Of a stretch of 14,718 bases of DNA, positions 2,250 through 14,637 are shown piece after piece (the first letter of the stretch is position 1; each line of letters begins with the position of its first letter). The position numbers and the translations under genes are program-made. The DNA is taken from NCBI GenBank assembly GCA_051294375.1, contig CM119267.1:16764821-16779538 (forward strand), written 5' to 3'. Source of the DNA: Paraspadella gotoi (taxonomy: Eukaryota > Animalia > Chaetognatha). The notes under the pieces were generated by a model. The model made no database searches. It was not told the origin of the DNA and saw only the letters and a list, made by a program, of their open reading frames with translations.

Positions 2250-2643
2250 TACAGACTTACGACATTTCTATTTTGCCGGTACTGTATCTTATTAAAGAGA
2301 TAGTGTAAATATTTTTGCAACAATTTGTTAGTTATAGACGTGATTTTGCTCAAATGGTGCGGGTGCTAGGAAAGCAGGGGATCTCCACCTCGGACGACCC
2401 GCGGTTCTCTGCGTGGAGCAGTGGTGAAACCGAAAGATAAAACCCCAGACCGAAAACATCACACCGTCTATTGGGCGGCCTGTGCAGGAGCTGGCAACCA
2501 ACCCTGCACAGCAGCATACGTGGGCAGACAGGCTAGTCTCTTGCAAATCGTTTCCAGCAACATCAAAAAACCCCTACCGTGACGCTGGCGGGGCATTACC
2601 TGTCCTCTTGTTGCTGAGCATGCGGTCAACACCGGCCATTCAT
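2250..2643 (+). repeat. Indel-rich duplicate of 2689-3088 on the other side of an N gap (probable assembly overlap)
   Basis: Both copies start tacagacttacgacatt and end caacaccggccattcat. They differ mostly by 1-3 nt indels and abut the gap at 2664-2688. Confidence 0.85.
2254..2286 (-). mobile_element. Tc1/mariner-like terminal inverted repeat with TA target dinucleotide, possibly the right end of the foldback element
   Basis: Minus strand reads TA|CAGTACCGGCAAAATAGAAATGTCG, resembling the CAGT-NNN-GGC-AAAA ends of Tc1-family TIRs. The partner end is not in the window. Confidence 0.55.
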
Positions 2644-2793
2644 CTTAATCTCTCTCTTTATTCNNNNNNNNNNNNNNNNNNNNNNNNNTACAGACTTACG
2701 ACATTCTAGGTTTCCGGTACTGTATCTTGATTAAAGGAATAGTGTGAATATTTTTGCAACAATTTGTTTAGTTATAGACGTATGTTTTGGCTC

Positions 2794-3314
2794 AAATTGG
2801 TGCGGGTGCTAGGAAAGCAGGGGATCTCCACCTCGGTGACGACCCGCGGTTCTCTGCGTGAGCAGTTGGTGAAACCGAAAGATAAAATCCCCAGACCGAA
2901 AACATCAGGAGCCGTCTATTGGGCGGCCTGTGCAGGAGCTGGCAACCAACCCTGCACAGCAGCATACGTGGGCGAGACAGGCAAGTCTCTGGCAAATCGT
3001 TTCCAGCAACATACAAAACCCTACCGTGACGCTGGCGGGCATTACCTGTCCTCTGTTGCTGAGCATGCGGTCAACACCGGCCATTCATTTAGAGAAACAG
3101 ACTCTCGTACTGTCCCATGACCCAAACTGGTTCTCAAGAGGTATTAGAGAGGCTATCTAGTATCTACATCAATGCTCTCAAGCCCTCTTTGAACCGTAAT
3201 GGAGGACGATTCGACCTCCCTCCAAGCTATGATTCGCTTATTAAGAGCGTGGTGGAGGCCCCGCCCCCACTACGACCGCACAATCCCCTATCTCCACTCA
3301 ACGAGACAGGCTGA
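2794..3314 (+). pseudogene. 5'-truncated Penelope-like retroelement ORF: end of the linker plus GIY-YIG endonuclease, two frameshifts
   Basis: Joining ORFs 2764, 2930 and 3117 gives LVKPKDKIP..SGAVYWAAC..C..AYVGETGKSLANRFQQH..SSVAEHAVNTGH..VLSHDPNWFSRGIREAIYINALKPSLNRNGGRFDLPPSY. This is the motif series of the PLE (Penelope/Poseidon-type) GIY-YIG domain. Confidence 0.9.
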
Positions 3315-4899
3315 CACCCTTACGCAGGCAAAGGGCAGACGATGCCTCTCCCTCAACTGTAGCAACTCAGTCCTGCGGCTACAGGAGAAGGGAGAGGAGT
3401 CCCCACTCGTGGCAAAGCGGCAAGAATGGACACTTAGGCGTAGTGAAAGTTACATACGAAAATTCTAAAAGTTAATTATGAACAACATACCATCAGTGAA
3501 CATTAATTTGTAAAAAAAATTAATTTTATGTTTTTTTAATTTTCGCAGTAGGCTATATTTATATATATACTATCTCTTATAAAATCGAAAAATTTCAAAT
3601 AGGCTTTTCTTAATTTTGATTGCAGATTTGAATTCCTCGTCAAAGGTTGATAAAAGAAAATATAAATGATTTTTAAAATTCTTTCATTAAGTGGGTTAAA
3701 AATTCTTCCTAATAAACCTCATATTTCTATCATCACTACATCATAATAAATTCTACTCTTCACCACTAAATAATATCCCGCTTTTTTATTTTTGCACCGA
3801 AACACACGCTTAACTAGAACGGACATTTTTTCAATGAAAGCAGGTTCACTATCTTCTCTTAATATATCAAAATTTTCTGTGGAGCGATCCCTAAATCATG
3901 GAAAATAAATGTTTTATATGAAAACACCTGGTTTTAGACACCATTGATATCTCACAGTCTTATTTCGGTTTATCTATAGTATACATTAATTGGCCTACTG
4001 TCGCCTCAAATTTGTAATATTTGATAAAGGTTTTTTCTTATACAGTAACACTGTTTCATTAATATAGCCATTATAAATAGATATGTCGATGGCATATTGC
4101 TCATCGGTTTAAATTATATAATATAAATAAGAGAGTGGAAGAATATTCTTGAGCCGCTCAGCCTATAAAATTGGTAGCAGCCAGCACGAAACCACCCCCC
4201 CACGGCGCAACGCCGCGAGAAGGAGAAGCCGGCAGGCGTAGCAGGCCAAAGAGACATTCAAGTAGCACTGGGAATCCTACCCAGGAAGCCTACCCAATCC
4301 AGCACTAACATCCTCATCAATTACGTCAATCATTATTCTCATAAAATTTAAATCTTTTTTTAAAATATATGACCTGATTAAATTATTATAACATAAAATA
4401 TTATTATTTATATAAGTATCATGAAAGAGCCTGAAAAAAGGAGATTTAAGATAGCCAATCACAATTTGATAAAAATCTTAGATTTACCCTCCAGCTATTG
4501 ATTTTTGGAAAGATGTCTTGTTTTTGAGTATCATAATTAAATTAAAGCTGGGCCGGTTAAATTTTATACTACAGTATTTGCAAGTATGTCATTCTCTTTA
4601 GATTTGAAAGAGCTTTCAGAAGATAATAATATTAATATTATTTTTTTTTAAATTTCTTCAGAAAACTTACTGAAAATAAGAAAAAAAAATTGTATCTAAA
4701 AAAGTGAGTTAGAAAATGAAACCCGATTTTACAAGCCAACTTTCTCCACTCATTGCCAAGGCATATCTTAACTGATCAATATAAAATTTGAACATATAAA
4801 TGACTTTAATATGTTCTACTCAACTAATTTTTAAAATCAATGAAATAACCACTGCAAATGACAGCGTATTTCTACCGGCGCTTGTAAAATTGTCACCAT

Positions 4900-5814: not shown

Positions 5815-6424
5815 TTTTATCGAGCCTACCGGCGAAGCCGGTTCAGCCTCGATATTGATTCGGATCAGCTTCTTTGTGANNNNNNNNNNNNNNNNNNNNN
5901 NNNNNCCTCGTCGTCGTCGTCGGCGTCACGCTTTTTTGTATAAAAACTACTACGCTTTTATAGTTTTGGCTGGGACTTACCGTTTTTTTTAAATAAAAAT
6001 TATTATGAATTACGATGAAGTTTTATAAAAGTGTGCGATCATAGTAAGTTAAAAATTTAGATATGGCTTCTCATCTTGAAATAGCTCTGATATTTTCGTG
6101 GATTTCATTCTCTTTCTTTCTCTCTCTCTTTCTTTCTCTCTCTCTTTCACTCATACACGCATTTGTTTGTTTTATTTATGATGAATGATTCATTGCGTCA
6201 ATGAATGACTATCATCGCATCAAGATTATCATCGTATCAATGAATGATTATCATCACATCAATGAATGACTATCATTGCATCAATCATTTGGTTATTATC
6301 ATATCAATCACTTGGTTATCATCACATCAATCATTTGGTTATCATCGCATCAATCCTTTGGTTATTATCGCATCAATATTTGGTTATCATTGAAGGTAGG
6401 CGAGATCCTAGCCTTCTTTTTTTT
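5815..6424 (+). mobile_element. Non-autonomous Helentron-associated element (HINE/DINE-1/pearl-like)
   Basis: T-runs at both ends; 5' subterminal GCCTACC (5824-5830) and 3' GGTAGGC (6395-6401); 5' hairpin ACCGGC-GAA-GCCGGT; (CGT)n microsatellite at ~5908; internal tandem array; 3' hairpin GAAGGTAGG..CCTAGCCTTC (6392-6416). It spans an N gap. Confidence 0.6.
6189..6392. repeat. 22-23-bp minisatellite, about 9 units in two subtypes
   Basis: atcatcgcatcaatgaatgact-type units switch to atcatcgcatcaatcatttggtt-type units at ~6272. Confidence 0.9.
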
Positions 6425-6694: not shown

Positions 6695-6901
6695 TGTGGC
6701 GACGAAGGTTTCGCCACCATGGGGTCAACCCGAATTGGCCACTGTGTTTAGTGGTTGCAAAGGAAACCGGCTACTAATCTCTCTCTCTCTCTCTCTTATT
6801 TAACCGGTGCCTCTCTCATTGTAGTTAGTCTTGCACGGTCTTGTACATTGAACGTCTGTCATATACATTTTTGCCATTACATGTGATTTTGTACCACTAC
6901 A
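6695..6901 (+). repeat. Family A 5' LTR
   Basis: TGTGGCGACG...GTACCACTACA; 5' hairpin GTGGCGA/TCGCCAC; internal (CT)n. Confidence 0.9.
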
Positions 6902-6905
6902 TAAC

Positions 6906-6919
6906 TGGTGAGCCCAACG
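6906..6919 (+). promoter_or_regulatory. Primer-binding site of family A (tRNA-Trp-like, tentative)
   Basis: TGGTGAGCCCAACG begins after a 4-nt spacer following the LTR CA; TGG is complementary to tRNA CCA; resembles the Trp-type PBS TGGTGACCCCGACG. Confidence 0.75.
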
Positions 6920-7195
6920 AGAACACGCGAAAATCCTGACCAAAACTACAGTGCATAAAATCAACTGTCACGAATTAAGACTAATATATGAAACTAAGTA
7001 TGACTTGTCTATTTGTTTCCTCTGTGAGGTCTACGACGCCCAAGGACCTAAAGAAAAATCTTTCTATAATGCAGTATTAAGAATCTTGAAAGAAGACAAG
7101 GCGCCGAAGTCCCTCGTATTCAACAGCTTCGACAAACGAAGACACCAGTTTATGTTGGGGTTCATGGTGGACTAAAATCCACCAACCGTTCATCA

Positions 7196-7263
7196 GCGGC
7201 CATTGGTGCCGGAGGCAAGTCATTCGCCTCCCAACCCAAAGTCCGGGGTCTAGCCCGTGGTGT
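7196..7263 (+). promoter_or_regulatory. tRNA-derived Pol III internal promoter in the 5' LTR-B
   Basis: A-box-like TGGTGCCGGAGG (7204-7215); B-box-like GGTCTAGCCC (one T short in this copy); CTCCCAA anticodon-like loop. Confidence 0.7.
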
Positions 7264-7266
7264 CTG

Positions 7267-7342
7267 GCAAGTTAAGAGGGACGGGGCGCTTAACCCGCGC
7301 TGTAACATGGTGTTACAGCCTGATCCGAAGCTCAGGGACTGC
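7267..7342 (+). ncRNA. Twister ribozyme, type P5 (copy 1); predicted cleavage between U7291 and A7292
   Basis: Same elements as the 10911-10984 copy, with two single-base insertions (gcaagtt, cccgcgctg) that may be read errors. Confidence 0.7.
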
Positions 7343-7395
7343 TTAATTGAACGGTTCTAGTCACCTTCACATAACAATAATTACTGTCTCTTCAT

Positions 7396-7408
7396 TGGTG
7401 AGCCCGAC
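7396..7408 (+). promoter_or_regulatory. Primer-binding site of TRIM family B
   Basis: TGGTGAGCCCGAC follows LTR ...TTCA-T; its first 10 nt are identical to the family A PBS. Confidence 0.8.
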
Positions 7409-7559
7409 TTCCAACACACAGCAACAAAAACTTTAAGGCGACATGCCTCAACTCGATGCACTTTCCGACGCACAACACATCAGGCACATGCCTCAACTTG
7501 GTGACGCACTTTCCACCAACAACAACAATTCACTGAAGAGACGCAAAAGACTTCTCCCT

Positions 7560-7572
7560 AAGGAGGGGGGGA
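7560..7572 (+). promoter_or_regulatory. Polypurine tract of TRIM family B
   Basis: AAGGAGGGGGGGA directly before the TG of the 3' LTR. Confidence 0.85.
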
Positions 7573-7607
7573 TGTATGGTGGACTAAAATCCACCAACCG
7601 TTCATCA

Positions 7608-7676
7608 GCGGCCATTGGTAGCGAGGCAAGTCATTCGCCTCCCAACCCAAAAGTCCGGGGTTCTAGCCCGTGGCGC
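7608..7676 (+). promoter_or_regulatory. tRNA-derived Pol III internal promoter in the 3' LTR-B
   Basis: GCGGCCATTGGTAGCGAGG...GGTTCTAGCCC (B-box-like at 7659-7669). Confidence 0.7.
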
Positions 7677-7679
7677 CTA

Positions 7680-7755
7680 GCAGTTAAGAGGGACGGGGCG
7701 CTTAACCCGCCTGTAACACGGTAGTTACAGCCTGATCCGAAGCTCAGGAGACTGC
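7680..7755 (+). ncRNA. Twister ribozyme, type P5 (copy 2); predicted cleavage between U7703 and A7704
   Basis: GCAGTT-AAGAGG-GACGG-GGCGCT-TAA-CCC-GC-CTGTAAC(acggta)GTTACAG-CCTG(ATCCGAAGCT)CAGG-a-GACTGC. Differences from copy 3 fall in the P3 loop and a junction. Confidence 0.78.
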
Positions 7756-7808
7756 TTATATTGAACGGTTCTATCATTAACACATAACAATAATTTATGT
7801 CTCTTCAG

Positions 7809-8067
7809 GGTACATAATAACATGTAATTGGCAAAATGTAATACTGAGACAGACGTTCAAGTTGTACAAGACCGTGCAACAACTAACTCACAACTAAGGA
7901 GAAGAGGCACGCGGTCTTAAGTAAGAAAAGAGAGAGAGAAGAGAGAGAGAGAGATTTGAGAGAGAGAGATCAGGTAGCCGGTTTCGCTTTGCGACACGTA
8001 AACACAGTGATACCAATGGATCGGGGGTTGGACTCCATGGATGGCGAAAACGCTTCGTGCGGCCACA
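7809..8067 (-). repeat. Inverted, indel-rich copy of LTR-A, interrupted near its 3' end by the family B TRIM
   Basis: Reverse complement runs tgtggccgcacgaagcgttttcgcc...(CT)n...tgcacggtcttgtaca..ttgaacgtctgtc...ttatgtacc. The missing end plus spacer/PBS start (ccaaca-taaac-tggtg) lies on the minus strand at 7143-7158. Confidence 0.8.
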
Positions 8068-8221
8068 AAATAATAATTTATTTCATAAATTGAATTAGCA
8101 CAGTACTGTCGAAGACTTATTGATCTCCTCCAAAGGTGCAAACATAAATTAAAAATTTTTTCTTGTTATCTATTAGGTTCACATAAACTTGCTTCACAGA
8201 AGTCTCTTTCGCCTCATCGAC

Positions 8222-8380
8222 TATTATGTGAGACTATGACCGGGGCGAAGCGCGGATCCCTGTGCTCTATAATAATATCGCTTTCGCTCTTTGTGCGCTA
8301 CGTCGTGCGTCGTCGTCGTCTTGACTTTGACTTTGAAAGGCAGTTCGTCCGTCGTCGTCGCAGTCTGTCACGCCTTTTTG
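8222..8380 (+). mobile_element. 5' part of a second HINE/pearl-like element
   Basis: Same layout as 5815-5940: ..GGCGAAGC.. hairpin, CTTTGTG, (CGT)n, GTCACGC followed by a T-run. Confidence 0.5.
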
Positions 8381-9313
8381 CAATCATGCTTCTTAAGTGT
8401 GAATATCAATACGAGGGAGTTGAAAATTGTTATATATGGCTTCTTAATCATCAGAGAGTCTTTAAAAAATTCCATGTTTCTCATATCAAATATTCCTATT
8501 TGTTTATGTTTTATTTACAAACAAAAACCTTTAAATATATGTCTGCTTTCCTCTCCTCTCTTTCTTTTAATTATATGTCGCTGCTCTCTCTCTCTTTTGT
8601 TTCTCAGTGCACTGCTTCTTCTGGATTTTGTCCTAAAAACGAGTTCTGGCTCTGCAGGCGTCACATGCAGCGGTCCGTCCAGCTTCTTTCTCTTCTCGTC
8701 TCTGCTCTCTCTCATCTGTCTCCTCTCTCACTNNNNNNNNNNNNNNNNNNNNNNNNNGAATCGATAAACTTAGTTATTACGTTTCAATCGGAGGAAATTA
8801 AAAAAAAATTTTGTGATGTCATTTTCTTAAAAAAATCTACAATGACAAAGTCGTCTCCTTCGAATTCTCAGTTGCCGGAGGCAAATACAACAGCAGCAAT
8901 CGCGACACTGGTGATGGCGCCGCCTCCTGGATGGGTCCCGACGAAAAGAAAGGATGGCTCTACTGCAACCAATGCTTTCACAACTGAAGACGCCTCCACC
9001 ATTACAAACTTTATTTCCTTTGACGACGCATCTACCTTAACACAATGTGGAGAAAGCATAGATGCGTCATGTTCAACTGATCATGTCATTTTGGCGATTC
9101 TGCCATCTCTACTATTGATGCCGCAAATACCAACGCCACCACGCAAATGGTCATCAGTTATGATGTCACTCTTGAGGATGCGATGGAGGCCGCTATTGAC
9201 GTCCTTAACGGGGCGAGACTCTCGTCGCCGTCAATGGATGACAATCTTCACAAACACGGCTCTCACGGCAATTTGTGCTGTACGACGCCAACTCAGGATG
9301 TCAAAGCCGACGT

Positions 9314-9718
9314 TCAAATCGTCTTTGCGAGTTGCAAAGGCGGCGATCCCTTTGCCTCAGCCAGCGCCGCCTCTGCGGCTGGCACCGCCACCTTTGTGGC
9401 TTGCACCACCAAAGTTTTCCCAGCCATATCCAACTTCTCGGCCATTTCCGCCTCCTTCCCGGGTGTTTCAACCTCCTTCCAAAACGGTACCAGTTCGTCA
9501 CATGCCAGTCGTCTCGCGTAGTAGGCTGGCAGCATCGTTTCAAAAGCCAGCCAATTTTTGACAAGCCCTGACGCCACCTCTGCCTCCGCGGCTATCAATG
9601 AATCGACGTACTTACGCCGCCATTTGCGCGGTTTCACCCACAAGACATCAGCAACTGCCACCAATAAAAAAATGCCAGTGTTCCTCTGCGCCATTTCCAT
9701 TTCCACTCCCAAGACCAC
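9314..9718 (-). CDS. Possible antisense ORF (134 aa, E/K/A-rich, helical-looking) just upstream of the family A 3' LTR; function unknown, may be decayed
   Basis: GC-rich island; minus-strand translation ..ELVPFWKEVETPGKEAEMAEKLDMAGKTLVVQATKVAVPAAEAALAEAK.. looks more protein-like than the overlapping S/F/A/T-rich plus-strand frames. Confidence 0.35.
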   Translation of the reverse strand: MVLGVEMEMAQRNTGIFLLVAVADVLWVKPRKWRRKYVDSLIAAEAEVASGLVKNWLAFETMLPAYYARRLACDELVPFWKEVETPGKEAEMAEKLDMAGKTLVVQATKVAVPAAEAALAEAKGSPPLQLAKTI

Positions 9719-9748
9719 GCCCAGAAGAAAGTCCTTTGGACTTTTTCC

Positions 9749-9760
9749 GGGGGGCGGGGA
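9749..9760 (+). promoter_or_regulatory. Polypurine tract of family A
   Basis: GGGGGGCGGGGA directly before TGTGGCG. Confidence 0.8.
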
Positions 9761-9946
9761 TGTGGCGACGAAGGTTTCGCCACTATGGGGTCAACCCGAA
9801 TTGGCCACTGTTTAGTGGTCGCAAAGAAAACCGGCTCCTAATCTCTCTCTCTTACTTAACCGGTGCCTCTCTCATTGTAGTTAGTCTTGCACGGTCTTGT
9901 ACATTGAACGTCTGTCATATACATTATGTGATTATGTACCACTACA
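9761..9946 (+). repeat. Family A 3' LTR
   Basis: Direct repeat of 6695-6901 with small deletions; followed by TSD CGGT. Confidence 0.9.
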
Positions 9947-10835
9947 CGGTTTTTTTGTTTTAATAACGTCAGTATGTACCTCATCTTTTAAAACTAATAA
10001 ATAAGTTAAAAATATTCTCTTTATCAAAAATAAATGCAAGTCACAAAAAGTTACAAATTAAAAGTTGTCTTTAAAAATTATTTGATATTTTTGTAGGTGT
10101 TAAAAGCTTATTCAATAGGCTATATTTTCTGTTAATTTTAACCAATTCGATTTATTTTTGTTTAACAAATTATGATAAAAGACTGAAACTGCAACTTTTT
10201 GACTTGTTAACTTTAAAATAAATTCATAGGCAAACTATAAATGATTTAAGAAAATAAATTTACCCAGAGGTAAAAAAGATATGGAAGAACGGATTTCCAA
10301 AGTAAAAAAATCTTTTCAACTTTCCTTGGCATTCAAATCAGAAGTTGTAAGTAAAAATGGATAAAAGTGGACATAATTTTTTTTCCTAAAAGTTGCCAAA
10401 ATGGTACTCTTTTATCATTAGAAACGGGTAGAGATATTCCTAGCCAATCCTTCGTTCGGCCCAATTTGTGTTATGACACAAAGTTAATCAACATTAAGTA
10501 ACAACTGAACAATAGTGGAAAGAGTCGTTTTTTCCTAAATGCAACGTTTGTATGCGGAACCCAAACAAATCCCCAAAAAAAATCAAAGATTTTGTTGAAG
10601 TGAAAGACAATGTATCATCACATTATGCAGCAGCAACTAAGCCAAATTTATTTTATAGGGGATCAATCTTTTTCACTGCTTGCCAAGGACCATTTTTTGC
10701 CCCAAATCTGATAAAAAACATTGTCAGAAATATAATATTAATAATAATGTGAATAGTCCTCTTGATCAAAAAAAAGTGAAAACAGTTGGAGTATTAGTAT
10801 ATTATGGTGGACTAAAATCCACCAACCGTTCATCA

Positions 10836-10907
10836 GCGGCCATTGGTGCCGGAGGCAAGTCATTCTCCTCCCAACCCAAAGGTCCGGGGTTCTAGCCCGG
10901 TGGTCGT
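10836..10907 (+). promoter_or_regulatory. tRNA-like module (Gly-CCC-like, tentative) in the solo LTR
   Basis: Acceptor-like stem GCGGCCA/TGGTCGT; D-like GGTG/CATT with A box at 10844-10855; CTCCCAA loop; CCGGG/CCCGG arm with B box GGTTCTAGCCC (10888-10898). The anticodon stem is broken, so it is not a functional tRNA. Confidence 0.75.
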
Positions 10908-10910
10908 CTG

Positions 10911-10984
10911 GCAGTTAAGAGGGACGGGGCGCTTAACCCGCCTGTAACATGGTGTTACAGCCTGATCCGAAGCTCAGGGACTGC
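10911..10984 (+). ncRNA. Twister ribozyme, type P5 (copy 3, cleanest); predicted cleavage between U10934 and A10935
   Basis: P5 GCAGTT/GACTGC; GACGG (10923-10927) in place of consensus GAGGG; vestigial P1 GGCGCT; UAA; P2 CCC/G(A)GG; T2 GC-GC; P3 CTGTAAC/GTTACAG; P4 CCTG/CAGG with loop AUCCGAAGCU (typical twister loop GUCCCAAGCC). Confidence 0.82.
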
Positions 10985-11219
10985 TTATATTGAACGATTC
11001 TGTCATTAACACTTATCAATAATTACTGTCTCTTCAATGTATTAAATAATTTTATGCAGTTCAAAAATAATCTTTTTATTCAGTCTTAGGGAGGTCATAT
11101 TAAATATTAAAACTTATTTACCGGCCAAAAAATATTTTTAACAATGAAATTAACTAACATTTCCAAACCGCGACAATATTTTTTTCATCATGGTACCTTA
11201 ATTTTTAGCTTCAATATCA

Positions 11220-11433
11220 TTGTGATTAAACTTTATTTTGTTGTGTTTTTAGATATTTGAAATTAAAGACAAAGTCTTGATACAGCAACGATTTTATTTT
11301 TATTGTTCAGACAAGTTTCGGCTTTCAATCAAGCCGAAAAGCACTGATGAAGGCTTGAATGAAAGCCGAAACTTGTCTGAACAATAAAAATAAAATCGTT
11401 GCTGTATCAAGACTTCGTCTTTAATTTCAAATA
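11220..11433. mobile_element. Short Penelope-like insertion: inverted pseudo-LTR pair with a 34-nt extension and a target duplication
   Basis: 82-bp near-perfect inverted arms at 11254-11335 and 11352-11433; flanking direct repeat TAGCTTCAATATCA (11206-11219, 11432-11445); hammerhead core at the centre followed by AATAAA. Confidence 0.75.
11342..11379 (+). ncRNA. Minimal type I hammerhead ribozyme core (stem I truncated)
   Basis: CTGATGA-A-GGCTT(gaatga)AAGCC-GAAAC-TT-GTC; cleavage would follow C11377. Only 2 bp of stem I (CA/TG) remain. Confidence 0.7.
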
Positions 11434-11606
11434 GCTTCAATATCAAAATTCGCCTCGATAGTTCCAACTCTAAATGTAGAATTTCATGAAATTCGATCGG
11501 GTAGTTTGGTGGGAACAGATTCTGGTGACAAAAAAGGGGTACCTCATTTTATAATATGAAGCTTTCTGTACTATATTTAATGACTAAAAGAAAACAACTC
11601 TTGCAG

Positions 11607-12662: not shown

Positions 12663-14044
12663 AAGATGATTACATTCCTTGGGGTCTGGCCAATCTGCAT
12701 ACTAATCAAACTCCTCGAGTGACAATATTCCTGGATATGAATAGTGATGGCTACTTGAAATATAGAAAATTTAATGTTGAAGGAAAGGTCTTTGGTAAAA
12801 CAAAATGGTCTTCTTTCAGTTTTTTAAAGCAAAAGCACATTGTTGAAACCTTAGATGGTGAAAGTTCTGAATTGCGCCGTTTTCAAAGTATAAGACTGGG
12901 CAACTACAAAATTCTGAATCCTGGATATGACATAAAGCTACTCCTGGTTTTTCTAGATATTTTTCTTGGCTTTTGCTACATCCTTGTATTTGGAATTATG
13001 AAAAAGGCTTTGATAAAATTAATGAAATCATTGATACCAATGATAATTACTGCTATAATAATCTATTTGAATATTTTCTTTTTCGTTGTTCACATTAATA
13101 TTAATCAATTTAACAATTTAGATGTGTCCAATAAATACCTACCATTTTTACTGATGAAAAAATACAGGCGTATAGTTTTAACCAATGATAAAGTGATTTA
13201 TGCACATTTTCATTCATTAATAACCCTTACAAAATTTTCAAACCTTTTGGCAAATTATTGGATTGCTGCAGCAACAACTGCATTCATAATAATTTTGCAG
13301 AGTGTAGCCACAAAAAAGCATAATCACCAAATATTCTTAGTTTTTATGGGAGCGCTATCTATTTCTTTTCCGGTTGCAACAATTTCTTGGTGGAATAGGT
13401 TGGACCAAACTGCTTTTGATGGCTTTGAAGACATTTGCTCAAAATCATATGTTCAGTTCAGTTCAGATTTTAGTTTTATTAAAGTATACAGGCCTTTAAT
13501 TATCAGATTGATGACCTTTTTTTTTTTCAAGGAAAACTTTTTCTTTCTTACTTTGCTTTCATTTCTGCCCATGTTGAAGGTTGTGTTTTTTGCTTTAACA
13601 TCTCTTTCTTCGAAGAGAAAGGTTGCCAAATTCATGATGGGATCCTTGATCGCTTTGATGGTAATTCCTGTTTATTTCTACACACAAGAATACGGACAAA
13701 TCAACTTGACCCAGAGCCTCATTACAGAAAACATTCATCTGCAAAAGCATTTGTTATATTTTAACAAAATTGGTAAAATAGGAGGGACCATTAACAGAGG
13801 ATGTGAACATTTGGCCCCATCATTCTTGTCGATTATGTCATTTTTTGAAATTTTATCAGATTGTTATGGATTTAAATTATACAATTTGACCAATAAGCGT
13901 ATGGAGGCAATATGGAATAACTTTGAAGAAGTCAAAGATGCAACAAAAAGGGGAATCAATCTTCTATTTTCAAGCAACTCAGCACTCTGGAATTTCCTGT
14001 TGTTAATATTTCCAGCCACTTGGGTGCTGCTTAATTTTCAATAA
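12663..14044 (+). CDS. Probable terminal exon (~460 codons) of a multi-pass membrane protein, possibly chemoreceptor-like
   Basis: Strong polypyrimidine acceptor ttttctttctttttttttgcAG (ends 12662); frame open from (E)DDYIPWGLAN to TAA at 14042-14044 in very AT-rich DNA; about 7 hydrophobic segments. Confidence 0.75.
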
Positions 14045-14115: not shown

Positions 14116-14303
14116 CAGGGATGTGGAGCTGGATCTGGAGCTGGAGTCGGAGCTGTCGGAGCTGGCATATTTGGCCGAAGCTGGTTCTGTAGCTGAATTT
14201 ATTTTCTTACCGGAGCGGGAGCTGGAGCCGGAGCTTAGATTTTATCTTGGCCAGTGCTGGAGCTGAAGTCGGAGCAGGCAAAAAAAGGTCCAACTCCAGC
14301 TCC
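14116..14303 (+). mobile_element. MITE fragment with (GGAGCY)n subterminal repeats
   Basis: Starts CAGGGATGTGGAGC, followed by many GGAGCT/GGAGCC/GGAGTC hexamers. Confidence 0.7.
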
Positions 14304-14495
14304 AAAAATTTTTTTGGAAATAATAAAATTTTTAAAAATGAAAAATAATATTAATTTTTTCAAATATGAAGGATATGCTATTTGATGACAGTGACCATTA
14401 ATTAAGATAGTTTTACTTACAAGTTTCTGTCTTGAAACTTGTAAACATTTTTATCGCGATTTGATTGAAAGTATTATAAAAAATATACAGGGTAG

Positions 14496-14637
14496 CAGGG
14501 TTGTGGAGCCGACCTAATTTTCTCTCGGCTCCAGCTCCGGCTCCAGCTTCAGGCCAAATTTTTTTCGGCTCCGGCTCCAGCTTCGGCTCCAGCAAAAATT
14601 TCAACTCGGCTCCGGCTCCGGCTCCAACTCCAACTCC
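14496..14637 (-). mobile_element. Second MITE end of the same family, in opposite orientation
   Basis: CAGGGTTGTGGAGCC terminus followed by (GGCTCC/AGCTCC)n; this explains the PAPAP/GAGAG ORFs. Confidence 0.7.

Follow-up and report, generated by a model that had tools for sequence, protein, structure and literature searches.

Twister ribozyme cores in the LTRs of a Helenus-like TRIM, a candidate LTR retrozyme

Results

The window, by which we mean the whole stretch of 14,718 nucleotides that was analysed, contains a non-coding two-LTR element (TRIM) of 646 bp (7162-7807) with a PBS, a PPT and a 4-bp TSD (Table 1). Its direct repeats, the LTRs, are about 235 bp each and enclose an internal region of 178 bp. 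Aligned as 7162-7397 with LTR2, LTR1 gives 216 identities, 13 mismatches and 13 gap columns; it starts with TC rather than TG, and its one-base indels are probably assembly errors. The TRIM PBS is one base off the tRNA-Trp PBS of Gypsy-32_NVi and Helenus-2_SyJa (PMC10886601 supplement), and its first 10 bases equal those of the PBS of element A, the larger LTR element around the TRIM (6906-6915). An ORF at 7443-7721, which overlaps the internal region, has no Pfam match. No TSD of its own is clearly recognisable at LTR3, a solo LTR that belongs to this family. Right at their start, all three LTR copies carry an identical 7-bp hairpin (7165-7184 in LTR1).

Table 1. Features of the TRIM, of the related solo LTR and of the surrounding element.
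Feature	Position	Strand	Basis or remark
Element A, LTR element around the TRIM	6695..9946	+	LTRs 6695-6901 and 9761-9946, TSD CGGT
Left TSD GGGT	7158..7161	+	Same 4-mer at 7808-7811
5' LTR (LTR1)	7162..7394	+	Alignment of three LTRs
tRNA-like stretch in LTR1 (probable internal promoter for Pol III)	7196..7263	+	B box, A box scan
Twister core of LTR1, P5-permuted	7267..7342	+	Descriptor match; predicted cut 7291/7292
Predicted doubly cut unit-length RNA, candidate circle	7292..7703	+	Distance between predicted cuts
Non-coding internal region	7395..7572	+	Short internal duplication (7441/7486), from repeated 10-mers
PBS, likely tRNA-Trp type	7396..7408	+	Directly behind LTR1
PPT	7560..7572	+	Sequence; directly before LTR2
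3' LTR (LTR2), TG...CA ends	7573..7807	+	Alignment of three LTRs
Twister core of LTR2	7680..7755	+	Descriptor and element map; predicted cut 7703/7704
Right TSD GGGT	7808..7811	+	Copy of left 4-mer
Solo LTR, same family (LTR3)	10801..11036 (approx.)	+	LTR alignment, twister descriptor
Twister core of LTR3	10911..10984	+	Descriptor and element map; predicted cut 10934/10935

Where did the TRIM insert? Element A has protein-like frames and one 25-N gap, and it contains a third LTR in inverted orientation (about 7143-7161 and 7812-8055), which is the target site of the TRIM; this inverted copy may have arisen by rearrangement or by misassembly. Both TRIM flanks align, on the minus strand, to the LTR end of element A, the left flank with matches in 15 of 19 columns, a level that 6 of 5000 shuffles reach. 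Because the two flanks overlap at the same four positions of that LTR end, GGGT is a true target duplication. The seven ORFs from the element-A span outside the TRIM have no Pfam domain, and no RT or integrase helper was found there; element A is thus not established as an autonomous helper.

The structure of the family, and nothing beyond it, was read from a public sequencing run, X1, in which 30% of the sampled words matched. The guess for X1 was RNA, but its contigs of up to 25 kb, its AT-rich junction flanks and its coverage of neighbouring non-element DNA look like genomic DNA; the run is perhaps not independent of the source of the window, and its summed depths were not taken for copy numbers. 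The runs listed include none known as RNA, a result without bearing on expression. The two stretches tried returned 919 and 1067 contigs. At the TRIM, unrelated DNA begins behind 7807 in 18 contigs and before 7575 in 13, and at the solo LTR at least 46 contigs diverge before 10801-10803 and at least 31 behind 11036-11037. These divergence points, dozens of distinct junctions, define where the LTR ends lie and show that the insertions are many. Two contigs skip the solo LTR inside its flanking repeat, and one skips 7413-7485 of the internal region. The flanks of the solo LTR (10660-10800 and 11037-11180) belong to another repeated element, which many varied X1 contigs cover. X1 gives no cover at 7842-8057, and runs X2 and X3 yielded no matching contigs, neither of which is proof of absence. 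With the X1 contigs as comparison, the window appears to carry one-base errors: at 7299 it has a base that X1 contigs do not show (depth 4074/4081), and X1 has extra bases at 7412, 7417, 7427, 7429, 7451 and 7453 in nearly all of its depth (among 12 of the 44 indel rows).

Each LTR carries a tRNA-like stretch upstream of the twister; the copies in LTR2 and LTR3 lie at 7608-7676 and 10836-10907. By the Helenus definition (PMC10886601), box B (GGTTC) is matched in LTR2 and LTR3 and box A (TRGCY...YGG) with two to three mismatches. In our scan the B box has one mismatch in LTR2 and LTR3 and two in LTR1, and the A box, likewise with two to three mismatches, is without the TRGCY and YGG motifs. A strict script that asked for a B box together with a T stem of 5 bp and an acceptor stem of 7 bp accepted LTR3 only (one of the three copies) and 0 of 5000 shuffles. 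Neither default ARAGORN nor Rfam 15 reported a tRNA in the element; relaxed ARAGORN made six weak tRNA calls over two stretches, which were rejected as too unspecific. A T4 run is absent from 7197-7807, the first one downstream being at 8156. We rejected this absence as evidence, since 1041 of 5000 shuffles are also without T4. From the B box with a poor A box, and by likeness to Helenus, it is fair to infer that Pol III may transcribe the TRIM.

The three LTRs share a twister core. Our twister descriptor consists of a G, an A, a T1 strand, P1, U^AA, P2 (one mismatch allowed), GC, P4, the T1 partner, an A and GC; it follows the layout published for twisters (PMC8501958 Table 1; PMC5408937) and was composed after the sequence had been seen. 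Over both strands of the whole window it matches the three LTRs only; LTR2 shuffled 20,000 times by dinucleotides gave 4 matches, and 60 shuffles of the whole window gave one. The core begins with P5, a P2 strand, the catalytic G, an A, the T1 strand CGG, a 6-nt P1 link, U^AA, the second P2 strand and the T2 GC, and continues with a 7-bp P3, P4 and the loop UCCGAAGC, which contains the T1 and T2 partners. The motif GGCGCTT/AACCCGC, in which the slash marks the predicted cut, occurs in three copies in the window, the A after the cut being at 7292, 7704 and 10935.

That the LTRs have the anatomy of a twister, as the preliminary description held, is borne out by the element map of LTR2 and LTR3, where the catalytic G and A, both pseudoknots and P2-P5 can all be placed. 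In LTR2 the general-base G is 7692, T1 pairs 7694-7696 with 7737-7739 and T2 pairs 7709-7710 with 7742-7743. All three LTRs have the U^A site with its conserved A, and in L1 the general-base G followed by A. Pseudoknots T1 (3 bp, CGG/CCG) and T2 (2 bp, GC/GC) are both intact in LTR2 and LTR3; LTR1 has an extra G after the first T2 strand (7299) and an extra A in P5 which, if real, could impair its twister. P3 and P5, which are optional stems in twisters, have 7 and 5 bp, P4 has 4-5 bp, and in LTR2 and LTR3 the pairing probability of most pairs in these stems is about 0.8-1.0. P2 consists of 2 bp and a C.A mismatch; the 6 nt between T1 and the cut U leave P1, for which the twister definition asks at least 2 bp, with two pairs and a 2-nt loop, or with one pair and 4 nt. 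Similarly to the Schistosoma rows of PMC8501958, P3 starts and finishes nearly as it does there; T1 is CGG/CCG as against GGG/CCC in six of the seven rows, both sides of one pair being swapped. A single degenerate X1 contig weakly hints at pairing in P2, with a swap from C-G to U-A.

Is this core a working ribozyme? With the Rfam 15 twister model no match came up at the gathering score; relaxing the threshold to E<=5 for 5 kb and to E<=10 for LTR2 gave none either. This miss is weak evidence, since a descriptor-plus-CM pipeline recovered just 26% of active P5-bearing twisters (PMC11662667). Searches for independent relatives gave 0 matches for the exact pattern in metagenomes and 0 for the patterns tried in viral contigs; a loose pattern hit 114 metagenome loci, one of which passed the P2 and P4 filters and was rejected as without twister appearance. 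A competing 4-bp hairpin (7694-7697 with 7706-7709) ties up the T1 and P2 strands. In the two-dimensional fold its probability is 0.93-0.99 in LTR2 and LTR3 and 0.56-0.58 in LTR1, and it is 7.7 kcal/mol better than the active-like fold, with pseudoknots unscored; its dominance in the model may mean a slow or dead ribozyme. About 94% of some 2600 natural twisters assayed cleaved; P1 and P2 flaws were tolerated, P1 being dispensable, and pseudoknot or catalytic changes were harmful (PMC11662667). On the whole we regard the LTR twister as probably genuine and active.

The two predicted cuts lie 412 nt apart, as first proposed. This length is nominal because of the one-base errors of the window relative to X1, and the usual unit probably exceeds it by a few bases. 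To the predicted unit LTR1 contributes its 3' part and LTR2 its 5' part, with the PBS, the internal region and the PPT between them; the unit hence holds one LTR equivalent and no end repeat, again as described. The ends expected of twister cleavage, a 5'-OH and a 2',3'-cyclic phosphate, agree with PMC5408937. The further claim, that such a piece could only regenerate two LTRs if circularised, goes too far. An RNA from 7196 cut only in LTR2 would measure 508 nt with a 96-nt end repeat, and an RNA that extends beyond LTR2 and is cut in LTR1 alone would repeat 7292-7394 (103 nt). Singly cut RNAs would thus retain the terminal redundancy of standard strand-transfer templates, and circles are not required. 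Folded as a ring, the unit is 50% paired, with a z score of -2.0 against 100 shuffles (linear, -1.56), and the competing hairpin also dominates in the ring fold (7398-7807, 3 nt short).

Two kinds of evidence for a circle do not discriminate. "Goes back" joints in X1 were considered and rejected: two genomic LTRs yield the same pattern, and contigs cannot separate a circle from these. Likewise, the genomic LTR-internal multimers suggested earlier as a test do not decide for a circle. That test is unspecific because TRIMs without a reported ribozyme form such arrays, as described for Cassandra (PMC7215508) and LTR-11_DR (PMC10886601); furthermore, one turn of a circle would be enough, so that multimers would be no required product.

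Discussion

What might an element of 646 bp do with two ribozymes? We propose that this repeated, non-coding TRIM is an LTR retrozyme with a twister and a Helenus-like promoter, the circle being the template for the reverse transcriptase of a helper, and we put the probability of this reading at about 0.5. Pol III would start near 7196 and, there being no T4 run, read through the element. Each twister would cut at U^A to leave a 5'-OH and a cyclic phosphate, and the double cut would free a unit of about 412-420 nt; its ends, held together by P5 and other core pairs, would be joined to a circle by RtcB or by the ribozyme itself. Because ligation would rebuild a complete twister, the circle needs an off-fold to survive, and we propose that the competing hairpin keeps the rebuilt ribozyme mostly off, so that circles last. 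A Gypsy-type helper would then prime at the PBS and copy over the junction without a first strand transfer; the PPT would prime the plus strand and, after the second transfer, a two-LTR DNA would be integrated with a 4-bp TSD. These last steps follow the established mechanism of LTR retrotransposons: on a circular unit the minus strand from the PBS passes the junction, and PPT priming and the second transfer come next.

In favour of this proposal, a twister core occupies the same place in all three LTRs and no other site in the window, and mobility is evident from the TSD with its restored target and from junction contigs at both LTR ends. The flaws of the core are confined to P1 and P2, the tolerated kind (PMC11662667). 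Plant LTR retrozymes, which have the same layout, give circular RNA of cut-to-cut size (PMC4918200), and the uncut primary transcript of a Nicotiana retrozyme was not detected from a 35S construct (PMC9695139). Against the proposal, cleavage, RNA ends, ligation and circle are predictions of the model; Rfam returns neither twister nor tRNA, P2 and P1 are weak and the competing hairpin is dominant. The A box is poor, the LTR1 core has indels as assembled, and no RT or integrase helper was found. Finally, the 50% pairing of the ring falls below the >70% stated for retrozyme RNAs (PMC4918200). On balance we regard the Helenus-like TRIM with a well-formed twister core in each LTR as a real feature and the predicted circle as plausible. 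The fullest form of the proposal, a natural Pol III-twister circular-RNA retrotransposon, that is, a many-copy LTR retrozyme outside plants whose rebuilt ribozyme is silenced by a built-in hairpin, we hold more tentatively, at somewhat less than even odds.

The twister could instead be active but slow and serve mainly as a 3'-end former that replaces an oligo-T terminator; this is the main rival reading, which we consider rather unlikely. The template would then be a linear RNA (about 7196-7703), uncut in LTR1 and cut in LTR2, with circles as by-products or absent. The geometry of such an RNA leaves the 96-nt redundancy, and Cassandra replicates with just an 18-bp end repeat (PMC10886601); partial cutting could result from the competing hairpin. 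In published Helenus LTRs a T run often stands behind the tRNA-like part (by eye and uncounted, fish families being without it; PMC10886601 supplement), and the TRIM has none of the T4 type before 8156, although this absence is within chance. Two points argue the other way. Since transcription reaches LTR1 before LTR2 and the ribozymes are near-identical, a fast twister would be expected to cut LTR1 first; and natural twisters mostly cleave well in vitro (PMC11662667).

It is improbable that the TRIM is an ordinary element of Helenus-like type that replicates through a linear, uncut template, with its twister-like fold a captured relic no longer able to cleave. The Rfam miss, the weak P1 and P2, the dominance of the alternative hairpin and the indels in the LTR1 core would all suit a relic, as would the result of the metagenome and viral-contig pattern searches, which found no independent homologous family to show covariation. 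However, the catalytic G and A and both pseudoknots, the most critical elements (PMC11662667), are intact in LTR2 and LTR3, and the model miss counts for little given the recovery rate quoted above. The core also varies little over X1 contigs: for LTR3 and its flanks, among 40 listed substitution rows out of 80, the LTR accounts for 8 and the twister core for 1, in the P3 loop; 0 of 7 indel rows lie within the LTR. It is very improbable that an error-prone assembly created the two-LTR layout and the spacing of 412 nt by joining repeat pieces: the window does have 25-N gaps and many one-base indels relative to X1, the inverted, indel-rich element-A LTR adjoins the TRIM and none of the X1 contigs listed spans the whole element, but the PBS lies exactly behind LTR1 and the PPT exactly before LTR2, the TSD restores a contiguous target, and X1 contigs cover the internal region, single ones crossing 7368-7506.

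How does the proposed twister retrozyme compare with known systems? The plant LTR retrozymes (Cervera, Urbina and de la Pena 2016; PMC4918200) are, like the TRIM, non-coding, with a self-cleaving ribozyme in each of two LTRs, a PBS, a PPT, a 4-bp TSD and solo LTRs. As predicted for the TRIM, their double cut removes the R repeat and a circular template was proposed, so that the analogy drawn in the preliminary description follows the same argument as PMC4918200. They differ in several respects (PMC4918200). Their ribozyme is a type III hammerhead, not a twister; their units are 600-1000 nt as against about 412 nt, and their LTRs 300-400 bp as against about 235 bp. The TRIM, unlike them, has a tRNA-like promoter in the LTR and a Trp-like rather than a Met primer. 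For the plant elements circles were observed, whereas the circle of the TRIM is predicted only, and the TRIM host, an AT-rich eukaryote, is in contrast to theirs probably no plant. A preprint of July 2026 defines LTR retrozymes by type III hammerheads and places them mainly in plants (bioRxiv 10.64898/2026.07.22.740005). We found no hammerhead core in the TRIM LTRs, with two loose matches elsewhere in the window; without a type III hammerhead in its LTRs the TRIM is no LTR retrozyme as defined, though it likely works alike.

The layout of the TRIM, as distinct from any sequence relationship to published families, is that of Helenus / TRIMp3 (Kojima 2024; PMC10886601). Both are shorter than 1 kb, with a tRNA-derived stretch containing a GGTTC B box in each LTR, a PBS matching a tRNA 3' end, a PPT and, likely, a Gypsy helper. 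The 4-bp TSD, seen for one TRIM insertion only, and the tRNA 3'-end PBS are traits of animal-type Helenus. Pol III transcription of Helenus was not validated in that paper, and its text describes no ribozyme, the word "ribozyme" occurring once, in a reference title, and "twister" not at all (PMC10886601). Two twister loop motifs gave 1 and 0 matches in its consensus file, where line breaks can hide matches.

In two of the wasp families of that collection, Helenus-2_SyJa-LTR and Helenus-2_SyUm-LTR (PMC10886601 DataS1), a hammerhead core can be made out by eye behind the tRNA-like part, with a closed stem I, a stem II and complementary loops. These are two of the five matches for the hammerhead core word in DataS1; they also have, by eye, a tRNA-Trp PBS, and the paper is silent on a hammerhead. 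On their sequences, Helenus-2_SyJa and Helenus-2_SyUm may be unrecognised insect LTR retrozymes.

Twisters have been described in mobile elements of the non-LTR kind, namely Perere-3 and RTE elements (PMC8501958, PMC7761336, PMC9695139, PMC6765202). The twister of Schistosoma Perere-3 (PMC8501958) resembles that of the TRIM in lying inside a retrotransposon and in a core with very similar P3 and L4. Perere-3 is autonomous and non-LTR, with one type-P1 twister that trims the 5' end, whereas the TRIM has two P5-permuted copies in its LTRs, with T1 swapped. Animal non-LTR retrozymes (PMC7761336; bioRxiv 10.64898/2026.07.22.740005) are, like the predicted TRIM unit, small genome-encoded and ribozyme-bounded, with circular RNA in animals; unlike the TRIM, they form tandem arrays with type I hammerheads, are without LTR, PBS or PPT and have Penelope-like helpers. 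In the open literature, subscription journals being mostly outside it, we found no twister-bearing LTR element; supplements of twister surveys may list the sequence without its context.

The likeness to engineered Tornado circRNA vectors, also drawn in the preliminary description, stands in part. Tornado is engineered and not mobile, and its circles reportedly shed their ribozymes; in the TRIM, ligation would rebuild the whole, intact twister inside the circle, and here the likeness fails. It holds for the Pol III promoter, the flanking ribozymes, the 5'-OH and cyclic-phosphate ends, the joining by RtcB and the pairing that holds the ends, all of them features of Tornado (bioRxiv 10.1101/2023.07.11.548538) that are predicted for the TRIM.

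The design of a ribozyme within LTRs has so far been described with hammerheads, mainly in plants; the TRIM would be a twister version of it. Twisters are widespread with few assigned roles, and in the literature consulted those of mobile elements are placed at the 5' end of non-LTR elements (PMC7761336, PMC8501958, PMC9695139). The design would be independent of any one ribozyme class if the LTRs of a small TRIM do carry a twister. If this is true, and if the wasp hammerheads are as well, TRIMs with tRNA promoters would have captured different ribozymes more than once and at the same spot behind the promoter, and would form an unrecognised class. An element of 650 bp also makes the choice between a circle and a singly cut linear template, a question that belongs to the retrozyme model, directly testable. 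Furthermore, a natural unit of promoter, twister and circle would serve as a reference for the design of circRNA vectors.

Other features of the window

Nested long inverted repeats of foldback- or MITE-like appearance occupy 43-1763, with arms at 549-842 and 874-1167 of 294 nt each that are 94% complementary. A Penelope-like fragment at 2290-3470 has a weak GIY-YIG match (E 0.018, below the cut-off) and is duplicated over an N gap with a spacing of about 445 bp. An intact ORF of 441 codons (12719-14044) encodes a hydrophobic product, for which Pfam, Atlas and searches of 5.8 billion and 1.84 billion proteins returned no relatives. At 11251-11436 lies a near-perfect inverted repeat of 85 nt with a 16-nt loop; sub-threshold matches to miRNA families there were rejected, as they reflect the hairpin shape only. 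Finally, 6190-6385 and 14119-14632 hold a 23-bp minisatellite together with 6-mer-based repeats in inverted arrays.
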